Assembly: GCA_018238545.1 (NCBI GenBank)
Contig: JABCTC010000050.1
Coordinates: forward strand, 1-23,465
Direction: 5' to 3'
Origin: Candidatus Heimdallarchaeota archaeon
GTDB lineage: Archaea > Asgardarchaeota > Heimdallarchaeia > Heimdallarchaeales > Heimdallarchaeaceae
Length of the DNA stretch: 23,465 nt
The notes below the pieces were generated by a model. The model saw only the letters and a program-made list of their open reading frames with translations, was not told the origin of the DNA and did not search any database. Shown here in pieces: positions 17,457-21,024 of the stretch; within the stretch, counting starts at the first letter, position 1, and each line of letters begins with the position of its first letter. The translations under genes and the position numbers were made by a program.

Positions 17457-19247
17457 TTAACTCCTATTAAAAAACAACTTTATCTTCTCTTTTAACGTCT
17501 TAATAGATGTATGCCGTTCGAAGTTGAACTCACGAGTATATTTTGTACCTCTTGGATCTAATAGAATGTGAACAGCTTTATCTCCCTTATTTCTTATCGC
17601 TCTTCCAAAGCTTTGCGATAAACGTTGGAGCATTGGGATTATTAATGAAAAATCTCGTGCCAGTTTAGAATCAAATTGATTTGATAAATCTTCATAAATA
17701 ATTTTATTCTCTTCTGATGGAGGGGGGAAGGGTAATGCGGTAATAATTATTCCTTTAATTAGACTTTTGCCATCTACTGTAAATTCAATACCTTCTGCAA
17801 TTTTCCCTCCAGTTACACAAATTATCAGTTTTTTCTCTTCTGAACTTGCTATAATTGCTTGAAGTGTTGTAATGTCTTGCCCTGGTGATTCTACAATATC
17901 TGGTTCAAGCACGTTTGTATCAAGTAATTTTTCTATGTAACTATAGCTTGGAACAAAAACAAGTGTGTGCCCTGGTATTTCTTCGAAAAGATTTCTAATC
18001 GTACTACTTACAAGGATATAATATTCCGGTGTCCTATTAGCGAACTTGGCATTCAATTTCTGGTTAACAACAACAAAGTATCTACTCTCAATTTCTTCTT
18101 TAGGAGGTAGAACTCTCAATGTTCTAGAGCGAGGTAACTGAAATATTCTTTGATAAGAACGTACAGGTTCCAAACTTCCAGACATAAGAGTCAGTCGTTT
18201 TGCTTTGCTGAAATTACCTAAAATCTCTGATGATCTAGTATTAACTATTGATAATTTCTTTCCATCCGATATCACTTTTTTATTTTGAGCTGATTTCAAG
18301 AAATGATACGCAAGGTATGCATTGAAAGCCATAGGTTTTTTATAGGCTATCTGAGACTGAAGCAAGCTGAATAAATCCTCTTCTAATCTTTTGATTTCTA
18401 GTTCAGAAAAATTGATTTCAACTACTTGGTTATCATTGAACAAATCATGCAACTCGGAAAATATGCTACTTGGTAACTCTTCTAAAGCTCCTTCAATGAA
18501 AGTTCTACTGATTTCTTGATTGATTGGCTTATACAAATTGTGCGCTTCATCAACTAGGGTAAGCATCTTTGAAATAGGTGTGTCAATACTATAGAACAAT
18601 CTTGCAAATAATGCTTGGTTCTCAAGGAAAGGGTATGATGTGATGATGACATCGGCTTTTTGCATAAGATAATATGAAAAAAAGTAAGGGCAATAGTTTT
18701 TGGTATTCAGATTCGAATAAAGATCTTCTCTAGAAATGACATGTGAAAAGGAGTGATATAGACCTCTTACTGAATCTAGCAAATCTTCTCTTGTCGCTCT
18801 CTGTGTTTTAGCTTTCAAAGGACATCGGGTTAAGTTGCAGATGTGTGTATACATCTCTCCAGGGTACTCTTTTTTAGCTTTTAAACACAATTCGTTTTTC
18901 CCTAGAAAGGGTAAAAATATTGGAAAATTCCCGAAATGGTCTTCTAAAAGATTCCAGTGTTGAACTATCTGATTGTGAATATTTGATAATTCTCTTAGGA
19001 ATACATTGATTTGAGCTTTGGTTCTTACAAACACAATTATCTTTTCATCGGGTTTTTTGATAGCTAAATATGCAGCCATAACAGCAGCTGTTTTCCCAAC
19101 ACCTGTATGAGAACTTACAAGCAAAGGGTTAGACGAAGAAATTATTGAACGAATTATTTTCTGTTGGGGAACCTTCATCTGAGGGTAAGGAAATAAGATT
19201 TTTACTGTTTCCCAGTGTAGTGTCTCTTCTTCGTTAAGTTGATACAA
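17457..19247 (-). CDS. XPD/Rad3/DinG-family Fe-S DNA helicase (SF2), motifs intact
   Basis: Q-motif FPY...Q, Walker A HTGVGKT, Ia RTKAQ, four Fe-S Cys (ELC, HIC, TRC, CPYF), DEAH, MSGSL, FVPSY, AEGIEF and QSFGRAIR. Confidence 0.9.
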   Translation of the reverse strand: MYQLNEEETLHWETVKILFPYPQMKVPQQKIIRSIISSSNPLLVSSHTGVGKTAAVMAAYLAIKKPDEKIIVFVRTKAQINVFLRELSNIHNQIVQHWNLLEDHFGNFPIFLPFLGKNELCLKAKKEYPGEMYTHICNLTRCPLKAKTQRATREDLLDSVRGLYHSFSHVISREDLYSNLNTKNYCPYFFSYYLMQKADVIITSYPFLENQALFARLFYSIDTPISKMLTLVDEAHNLYKPINQEISRTFIEGALEELPSSIFSELHDLFNDNQVVEINFSELEIKRLEEDLFSLLQSQIAYKKPMAFNAYLAYHFLKSAQNKKVISDGKKLSIVNTRSSEILGNFSKAKRLTLMSGSLEPVRSYQRIFQLPRSRTLRVLPPKEEIESRYFVVVNQKLNAKFANRTPEYYILVSSTIRNLFEEIPGHTLVFVPSYSYIEKLLDTNVLEPDIVESPGQDITTLQAIIASSEEKKLIICVTGGKIAEGIEFTVDGKSLIKGIIITALPFPPPSEENKIIYEDLSNQFDSKLARDFSLIIPMLQRLSQSFGRAIRNKGDKAVHILLDPRGTKYTREFNFERHTSIKTLKEKIKLFFNRS

Positions 19248-21024
19248 GTTCTTTCCTTCCTTTTATGTTACTAAAGAAATGGTCTGCTTTTCCTTCAGAG
19301 AAAATATTTTTCAATAATTTCTGTGTAGATAAATCGGGTTTGAGTTTTTCAATTTCTGGATTTTCATTGAAAATCAACTTAGCTTCTTCAATTGAGCATT
19401 TTGTGAGAAATTGGATATACTTCAATTCTTCCAGATTCTGTTCAACTTCTTTTCTTATTTCCTTTTTTTCTTTCCTATTCTTTGCTAAAACGCTAACAAC
19501 ATTGACCATTGCTCTAGTTCTAACATCCATTTTTTTGTCCATGTTCTTCTTGAAAATCTGTTGCTGGTTTTGAACTAAAATTTGATGAATACGAGGGTCA
19601 TTTAATTTATTTTTAAAATTCTTCTCGCGGTTTCTGAAATTGTGATACACTCTCTCTTCATTGGATCTGTGAGTGAGTAATATGTAAACCTCGCTTTCAC
19701 TCGCTACTCTTTCTACAATAGTTGCATATTTTATTGGATTATTAAAAAAGATCAAAGCGTCTGATTTAATACTCAAAATCTTACTAGAGATAAGCACTTG
19801 AATCTTTCCATTCTTGAAATCATCAATAACTCTCTCTTTCTCCTTTTTTCTACTTGAAGATACAATCTTACTTTGCATTCCAATTTCATCGAAATATGCT
19901 GGAAGACTAGCTAGAACGGCTTTATTTGATGCAATAACCTGAAATTGAGAAAAATTCCTTTTCATTTTTAATTGATGGACTAATTGTTTTAATCTTGAAA
20001 ATTTTGGGTGATTAGTCTTTTCGCTTATTTGATTAAGTTCTTCTAAAAACTCAGTGAAAATTGGCGTTCGAACGAAATTCACATGTAGATTTTTGATATA
20101 TTCAGCTTCTTCTGTTTTGACCACTCTAGCTTGGAGATTTTCCATGTAACGTATAGCTGCTTTCGTTCCTGAAGCCTCTATTAAATCTTTCAATATCTGA
20201 AAATTAATTAACTCGATAGTTTTGCGAATAATGATTTGTTGTTCATCTTGTTCAAATTTGGAACGGACATCCGAAATAAATTGTGGGAAATTCTTTCTGA
20301 CAGTTATGGGTTTAATGATCCCTTTGCTTTTTAGAAATTCAGTGTATTCTCTAATATAACGGTTAATTTCAAAACAGAAATCGTAGATTGGTTTATTCAG
20401 AGGGACGATTATAGATTGTTCTTTTGTCTTTGCATTCTCGTAAGCAGCTCGAGGACTAAAGTTTTCATAAACCTCTATCTTCGTAATTAAGAGATTCTTA
20501 CAAATCTCAACTATATCTTCAACCTTGCTAAGACTCTGAGAAGTATATCCTATTGTTCTGACCATAATATTATTCTGATGGAAAATTTCTAGAAGCTTAA
20601 CAATTGCATGTTTTCCTTTTGCTAGATGAGATTGATCAACAATAAGTAAACTGAATTGATTAGGAGAGATAAATTTGCGGAAAATATCGTTCCTTAATAA
20701 GTGAGGGGTGATGATTATGATGTTGTTTTTGGAATACTTCTCTCTCCGACTATCCTCAGAATCTGAAGAATTAAATGTGGTTAGCTGAAAAACCTCTTCC
20801 TTTTCTGCACTGAGTTTTGTATAATACTCATTGAAAATATCCGTGTCTGGGAGGATTATACCAATTTTTTGTTCAGGTTGATTTTTTAAGAAATATCTGA
20901 TTAGAATTGATGAGACCTGAGATTTGTCATAATATGGTGTGAGGAATAAGAGCGTGTTTTCCTTTGAAGCAACTCCCAGCACAATTTGACTAAATGTATC
21001 TCTTTTGTCCTTCATCTTACCCAC
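19234..21024 (-). CDS. Hef/FANCM/Mph1-like helicase-fold protein with degenerate catalytic motifs (pseudo-helicase)
   Basis: Hef-specific blocks are retained (NTLL, ITPHLLRND, SLLIVDQSHLAKG, EICKNLLITKIE, HPKF..LK, DDFKNG...VLISS). Walker A reads TPYYDKS, motif II DQSH and motif III TSQS; motifs V and VI are absent. Confidence 0.8.
   Translation of the reverse strand: MGKMKDKRDTFSQIVLGVASKENTLLFLTPYYDKSQVSSILIRYFLKNQPEQKIGIILPDTDIFNEYYTKLSAEKEEVFQLTTFNSSDSEDSRREKYSKNNIIIITPHLLRNDIFRKFISPNQFSLLIVDQSHLAKGKHAIVKLLEIFHQNNIMVRTIGYTSQSLSKVEDIVEICKNLLITKIEVYENFSPRAAYENAKTKEQSIIVPLNKPIYDFCFEINRYIREYTEFLKSKGIIKPITVRKNFPQFISDVRSKFEQDEQQIIIRKTIELINFQILKDLIEASGTKAAIRYMENLQARVVKTEEAEYIKNLHVNFVRTPIFTEFLEELNQISEKTNHPKFSRLKQLVHQLKMKRNFSQFQVIASNKAVLASLPAYFDEIGMQSKIVSSSRKKEKERVIDDFKNGKIQVLISSKILSIKSDALIFFNNPIKYATIVERVASESEVYILLTHRSNEERVYHNFRNREKNFKNKLNDPRIHQILVQNQQQIFKKNMDKKMDVRTRAMVNVVSVLAKNRKEKKEIRKEVEQNLEELKYIQFLTKCSIEEAKLIFNENPEIEKLKPDLSTQKLLKNIFSEGKADHFFSNIKGRKELVST

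Follow-up and report, generated by a model that had tools for sequence, protein, structure and literature searches.

The DNA analysed here, a stretch of 23,465 nucleotides (nt) hereafter called the window, makes up contig C47 of a Candidatus Heimdallarchaeota genome (3.63 Mb, 92 % complete), whose other contigs are cited as C7, C102 and so on. It carries two overlapping minus-strand genes, designated A and B. Gene A encodes a real, conserved and apparently undescribed pseudo-enzyme of the XPF/Hef kind, for which the product of gene B, an intact iron-sulphur (Fe-S) helicase, is a plausible but unproven partner. No paper describing gene A or the A-B pair was found in the literature. The two genes and their junction were as follows, with lengths in amino acids (aa):

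19234 to 21015, minus strand: gene A, ATPase-dead and nuclease-less Hef paralogue, about 593 aa; frame open up to GTG 21024
17457 to 19247, minus strand: gene B, intact Fe-S helicase of the XPD family, 596 aa; nearest solved relative is the XPD of S. acidocaldarius
19234 to 19260, minus strand: putatively coupled junction, with GGAAGG at 19260-19255, TTG of B at 19247 and TAA of A at 19236-19234

Of the original prediction, the observations were confirmed with small corrections and the interpretation was upheld in part. It had described two open reading frames (ORFs) of 596 aa each, overlapping by 14 nt. The overlap (19234-19247), the frames and the length of B were upheld; the length of A was revised to 593 aa because its close database homologues are also 593 aa long and begin at the position of ATG 21015, which is the most likely start. 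The equal lengths were a coincidence of ORF calling. Five domains or segments were delimited in A (residue numbers count from GTG 21024):

20425 to 21003, minus strand: RecA1-like domain, residues 8-200; motifs I, Ia, II and III degenerate, Ib-like TP..LxND..R stretch retained
20014 to 20424, minus strand: helical insertion domain, residues 201-337, equivalent of Hel2i, with which Hef and FANCM recognise branches (PMC11472164)
19669 to 20013, minus strand: RecA2-like domain, residues 338-452; HPK retained, motifs V and VI deleted, net basic across orthologues
19480 to 19668, minus strand: post-RecA2 helices, residues 453-515, the first of which aligns with the mincer helix of FANCM (PMC12263834)
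19255 to 19419, minus strand: C-terminal four-helix domain, residues 536-590, probable relic of a double helix-hairpin-helix domain, (HhH)2, without GhG hairpins

The motif losses originally reported for A were all seen in the alignment. Walker A reads TPYYDKS, Walker B DQSH and motif III TSQ; motifs I, Ia, II, III and IV are all degenerate, and A has lost motifs V (EEGLD) and VI (QRxGRxGR) by deletion. The ERCC4 nuclease domain (GDxnERKxxD), likewise reported missing, gave no Pfam match in A and its region is deleted in the alignment. As read from its sequence, A uses no ATP through known motifs and cannot cut.

The Hef scaffold claimed for A was borne out by its predicted fold (predicted local distance difference test, pLDDT, 79). 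The best solved relative was the helicase domain of P. furiosus Hef (1wp9; E 1e-14 over residues 13-468), and profile comparisons gave E-values of 1e-46 for Hef, 2e-32 for FANCM and 2e-5 for XPF. In Foldseek, 1wp9 ranked first (template modelling score 0.57/0.69); RIG-I-like RNA sensors share this fold. The VIA structural match to 1wp9 reached Z 26.1 (root-mean-square deviation (rmsd) 4.7, 441 residues), followed by FANCM in second place (23.3) and by XPF (18.2). Against the NCBIfam model for Hef (NF010337), A scored 118.9 bits, below the cut-off of 610. The best-conserved segment of A is 453-476, and the FANCM mincer helix maps to residues 456-472 (manual count on a sequence alignment), while the next post-RecA2 helix carries invariant Q487, F491 and T503. 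RecA2 is basic in every orthologue; the insertion domain is not notably basic.

The last 60 residues were predicted to form four helices (pLDDT 88). The relic (HhH)2 proposed there was supported by the fold and not by the sequence profile. The tail fold matched NusA (Z 8.0), FAAP24 (Z 6.8, rmsd 2.1, 58 residues aligned), Hef HhH (6.6) and FANCM (6.1); it resembles (HhH)2 and SAM-like domains alike, and Z below 8 is frequent among small helical domains. The profile comparison of the tail with Hef (HhH)2 was not significant (hhalign probability 0.7, lower than shuffled controls), and Foldseek on the tail returned no match at E < 0.001. On the model, the tail is a probable relic (HhH)2. It is absent from three A orthologues (G013, G014 and G020), which retain the remainder of A.

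With P. furiosus Hef (1wp9, 1x2i), A shares the RecA1-insertion-RecA2 arrangement over ~460 residues, the HPK and Ib-like stretches, the post-RecA2 helix and probably an HhH-like C-terminal fold; it differs in having neither ATPase motifs nor ERCC4 nuclease and in coexisting with a true Hef. Judged on defining features, A belongs to neither Hef nor XPF. In mode it seems closest to the dead helicase-like domain of eukaryotic XPF (ERCC4), which is degenerate and lacks GKT and DExH (PMC6320978). Both have a Hef-derived superfamily 2 (SF2) scaffold in which Walker A and B are destroyed and, putatively in the case of A, a non-catalytic role and an HhH-like end (PMC6320978), whereas the XPF chain also contains an active nuclease and has ERCC1 as its partner, and A has no nuclease; the likeness is a parallel, not demonstrated orthology. 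The pair FANCM-FAAP24 is comparable in that FANCM has the translocase fold of A, its mincer helix aligns with the best-conserved segment of A and the FAAP24 HhH is among the top matches of the A tail. FANCM, however, is active in translocation and retains its nuclease fold in a dead form, while A is dead and without nuclease fold.

A dead A orthologue was found in 20 of the 30 Heimdallarchaeaceae genomes surveyed (genera g1 to g5, g5 being Ca. Heimdallarchaeum), in addition to canonical Hef, and no other family yielded A orthologues at comparable scores. Source names of the database homologues point to Ca. Heimdallarchaeota and Heimdallarchaeaceae, Ca. Heimdallarchaeum aukensis among them. ATPase motifs are missing in A and in all 19 orthologues from other genomes. 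The ratio of non-synonymous to synonymous substitutions (dN/dS, by Nei-Gojobori, only pairs with dS < 1.1 being used) was 0.10-0.18 for A in six pairs, and low in each domain; it was 0.05-0.09 for B. The motif loss is not due to chance, because it is common to all 20 orthologues and A is under purifying selection; both the conserved loss with dN/dS below 1 and the unlikeness of A to a decaying pseudogene, as first proposed, were thus sustained. Orthologue frames are open over 512-650 aa in the 20 genomes and in 24 database clusters, at identities down to 23 %, and two of these genomes are single-contig assemblies. By these measures A is a pseudo-enzyme kept functional by selection and is not decaying. 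A pseudogene in decay or an artefact of assembly might be suggested by the loss of all catalytic motifs and by the C-terminal shortening of three orthologues, but this is refuted by the dN/dS of ~0.1, the long open frames and the two single-contig genomes, and is barely worth entertaining.

Separate canonical hef (C102) and xpd (C7) genes are both present in the genome. The Hef of C102 is 833 aa long, displays all motifs and is the genome's only match to PF02732 (ERCC4). Each A-carrying genome also has a long ERCC4-bearing Hef, and A never adjoins canonical hef. Canonical Hefs form a clade excluding A, and forcing A together with them was rejected (approximately unbiased (AU) test, p 0.038); going by the tree, A is not a recent duplicate of canonical Hef. 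The conserved last residues of A were considered as a mere effect of the overlap with B, which was discarded since R590 and L593 are retained where B is not adjacent. An extra, stop-ridden copy of the C-terminal quarter of A was noticed in one genome (G016, C1:152152-152613).

Gene B encodes an XPD-family protein with one further delimited domain:

18690 to 18887, minus strand: Fe-S domain of B with Cys121, Cys137, Cys142 and Cys186, invariant in orthologues

Confirming the full set of helicase motifs and the four Fe-S cysteines attributed to it, B has an intact Q motif, TGVGKT, DEAH, SGS, EGIE and QxxGRxxR, the same in all B orthologues examined, and its DEAD_2 and Helicase_C_2 matches are above cut-off. 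B bears the marks of an active helicase, for which membership of the XPD family would predict 5'-3' polarity. The proposed affinity to FANCJ failed in the sequence comparison: B matched S. acidocaldarius XPD (3crv) at E 1e-26 and FANCJ at E 7e-12, the latter over the C-terminal domain only, and since B is not FANCJ-like the parallel once drawn with FANCM and FANCJ of the Fanconi pathway is an analogy only. With archaeal XPD (S. acidocaldarius 3crv; T. acidophilum 4a15), B shares all helicase motifs, the four-cysteine Fe-S domain and a similar length; it differs in being the third XPD-family paralogue of its genome. The two others are the canonical XPD on C7 (Thermoplasma XPD at E 5e-63) and a DinG/YoaA-like helicase on C109. 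Against TIGR00604 (canonical XPD, cut-off 247 bits) B scored 122 and the C7 paralogue 352. We know of no archaeal XPD with a dedicated pseudo-helicase partner. Among 399 Asgard genomes (E < 1e-45, three candidates scored per genome), the B subfamily was confined to class Heimdallarchaeia. In PADLOC, B matched DinG-type models only, as would any family member. The C109 helicase (L109:1037-3385), of 783 aa, matched PDB entry 9kqh at E 1e-159 and showed a weak Cas4-like N-terminal match, and in G019 (L035:3273-5175) B is split into frames of 128 and 497 aa.

At the junction, the TTG of B lies 7 nt after GGAAGG, within the final codons of A. Genera g1 and g2 displayed B after A in all of their 16 genomes, 14 of which have the identical 14-nt overlap and ribosome-binding site, one an overlap of 17 nt and one a short gap where A lost its tail. 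The junction persists across genomes whose A proteins are only ~35-45 % identical. In both genera the two genes appear to be arranged for translational coupling. As a gene layout, the co-translated pair of the original prediction stood for g1 and g2 and not family-wide, the genes being 24-30 kb apart or on separate contigs in g3-g5. Seven family genomes (76-90 % complete) show neither gene, which says little since A and B are adjacent. In Ca. Heimdallarchaeum (G015; L051, L104-L105), A and B bracket a 30-kb cluster containing paralogues of RadA and RadB, a Ski2-like helicase, an uncharacterised protein of 1050 aa and one giant protein with immunoglobulin (Ig) repeats. In the source genome this cluster is spread over C43, C60 and C96, yet A and B are joined on C47 (four contigs altogether).

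A Hef paralogue or a short XPF was found near B in families f2, f3, f5 (Hodarchaeales, assigned by source names) and f7. A Hef-type neighbour of B is thus spread over much of the class, and none was detected near B in f4 and f6. Family f7 has a fully intact second Hef, whose distance to B is 8.6 kb in six genomes. In f2 (G010, L058:3569-5944), the second Hef lies 0.5 kb from B and has intact helicase motifs and HhH with a dead ERCC4, which is the arrangement of FANCM. The second Hef of f5 has a dead helicase and, in most cases, a relic of the nuclease. Of 12 genomes examined, 11 have it at no more than 13 kb from B, a fraction biased upward as the sample was mostly picked for both matches on one contig. 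This Hodarchaeales protein (L059-L069, L110; 43 database clusters) is ~640 aa long, lacks HhH and retains a relic of ERCC4; some copies stop at ~480-500 aa. An apparent operon of f3 (L097:6311-10561, plus strand; L098:8972-13216, minus strand) consists of a dead XPD-type gene, a short XPF (ERCC4 and HhH) and, last, active B, the genes overlapping or abutting. The dead copy, of the B kind, lacks Walker A and DEAH and keeps the Fe-S cysteines, being a second pseudo-helicase beside B.

A probably descends from a second Hef neighbouring B across Heimdallarchaeia, a common descent argued mainly by gene order. A single clade of all B-linked Hef paralogues was not rejected (p 0.44) and may be real. 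As to one or two inactivations, a careful tree parted A from the Hodarchaeales dead proteins and a quick tree joined them (88); long branches make both unsafe. Orthology of the dead Hef paralogues with eukaryotic XPF was dropped as unshown: the A profile matches XPF weakly and the Hodarchaeales profile matches only Hef.

One further element was noted upstream of A:

21103 to 21110, minus strand: candidate archaeal TATA box TATATAAA, ~90 nt upstream of A, recognised by eye

A sigma-70 promoter scan gave chance levels, with a model that is not applicable to archaea. The region upstream of A (21146-22474) is apparently rearranged, with an 86-aa ORF showing a weak helix-turn-helix match, a beta-lactamase-family ORF that lacks part of its N-terminus (21420-22214) and what is left (73 aa) of a gene reaching 1100-1200 aa in the two closest relatives. 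On its other side, B converges directly on a DegV gene (17434-17457); a gene for a probable membrane protein of ~320 aa, found after B in six relatives, is missing in the window.

The reading preferred here is that A is an ATP-independent, branched-DNA-binding accessory of helicase B, which we hold to be quite possible, though short of probable. A has lost ATP binding, helicase motor and ERCC4 nuclease while keeping the three-domain clamp, the mincer-like helix and usually the probable relic (HhH)2. It would most likely bind forked or branched DNA as a static factor, comparable to the way in which eukaryotic XPF has its enzyme assisted by a dead helicase-like domain, and would mark or hold the junction for B, which would supply the motor; cleavage would fall to canonical Hef, no other ERCC4 protein having been found in the genome. 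In g1 and g2, both proteins would be made from one message through translational coupling, as the gene layout suggests. Junction recognition by FANCM involves its insertion domain and its mincer helix (Q600, K610; PMC11472164, PMC12263834), and DNA binding by A is favoured by the high conservation of its mincer-like segment and by its basic RecA2. A link between A and B is supported by the fact that B follows A even where A lost its last domain, by the Hef-type neighbours of B in f2, f3, f5 and f7 and by the joining of A and B in a genome where the cluster is split up.

Several points weigh against an accessory of B. Motifs Ia and IV of SF2 helicases contact nucleic acid; both have degenerated in A, whose insertion domain shows no marked basic character, so that A may have lost DNA binding as well. 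FANCM also requires the mincer region for its stability (PMC12263834), and conservation of the mincer-like segment of A may be structural. A and B are ~30 and 26 kb apart in two single-contig Ca. Heimdallarchaeum genomes, 24 kb apart in G014 (g4) and on separate contigs in G013 (g3). In f4 and f6, B is present with no second Hef detected nearby, and orthology of A with the other B-linked paralogues is unproven (support 49/90, long branches). A complex prediction of A 198-594 (first domain omitted) with B 8-596 scored 0.00, no control pair being folded, and is evidence neither way.

Alternatively, A and B may serve the same pathway without contact, A working with the RadA/RadB paralogues, the Ski2-like helicase or the 1050-aa protein, or alone as a fork-binding protector, and the overlap being a lineage-specific rearrangement kept for co-regulation. 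A RadA paralogue indeed follows A in Ca. Heimdallarchaeum and a RadB-like homologue does so in G014. Moreover, several families have A, B and their relatives within or flanking a single conserved repair cluster, for the most part on opposite strands, and loss of the cluster interior with one inversion would join A and B. However, upon break-up of the cluster in the source genome A went with B and not with the RadA paralogue, and the exact junction survives between such divergent A proteins; we regard this alternative as conceivable, though rather unlikely.

A partnership with canonical Hef was also envisaged, in which A would be the inert subunit of an (HhH)2 heterodimer and tune Hef, as in XPF-ERCC1 and FANCM-FAAP24. 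XPF-family proteins act as dimers (PMC6320978), the tail fold matches FAAP24, Hef HhH and FANCM as given above, and a long ERCC4-bearing Hef accompanies A in each genome. This is nevertheless unlikely: the tail is absent from G013, G014 and G020 where the rest of A is kept, the ERCC4 fold, which is the other dimer surface, is gone from A, A never adjoins canonical hef, and NusA and SAM domains score alike on a tail whose profile match is not significant. A role off DNA, either as a protein scaffold only or in an unrelated process such as RNA sensing or defence, would agree with the loss of motifs Ia and IV, with the fold shared with RIG-I-like RNA sensors and with the family-specific invariant helix (residues 483-503) that has no Hef counterpart. 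PADLOC gave no match for A, however, and A is inherited within one family, placed in a repair neighbourhood and endowed with conserved basic residues in RecA2 and the mincer helix, which leaves such a role little credit.

More speculatively, and with somewhat poor prospects of being right, the accessory reading may be widened to a two-helicase repair machine particular to Heimdallarchaeia, in which an XPD paralogue would need a partner of the XPF/Hef family. This partner would have turned pseudo-enzyme more than once (in Heimdallarchaeaceae and Hodarchaeales, with the dead XPD copy and short XPF in f3), A and B would be the dead and the live subunit of an obligate heterodimer, and the division of Hef into XPF-like and FANCM-like forms would still be represented in the class by living intermediates.

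Eukaryotes split the ancestral Hef into half-dead proteins, namely XPF, in which the helicase is dead, FANCM, in which the nuclease is dead, and also ERCC1 and FAAP24; what the dead helicase domain of XPF does is understood in part only. The class regarded as the nearest archaeal kin of eukaryotes holds a second Hef in graded states, being intact, nuclease-dead or without either activity, in most cases close to the same XPD paralogue. A is a stand-alone dead scaffold of 593 aa with a candidate partner gene adjacent, so that two recombinant proteins would allow a direct test of what a Hef/XPF helicase domain does without its motor.

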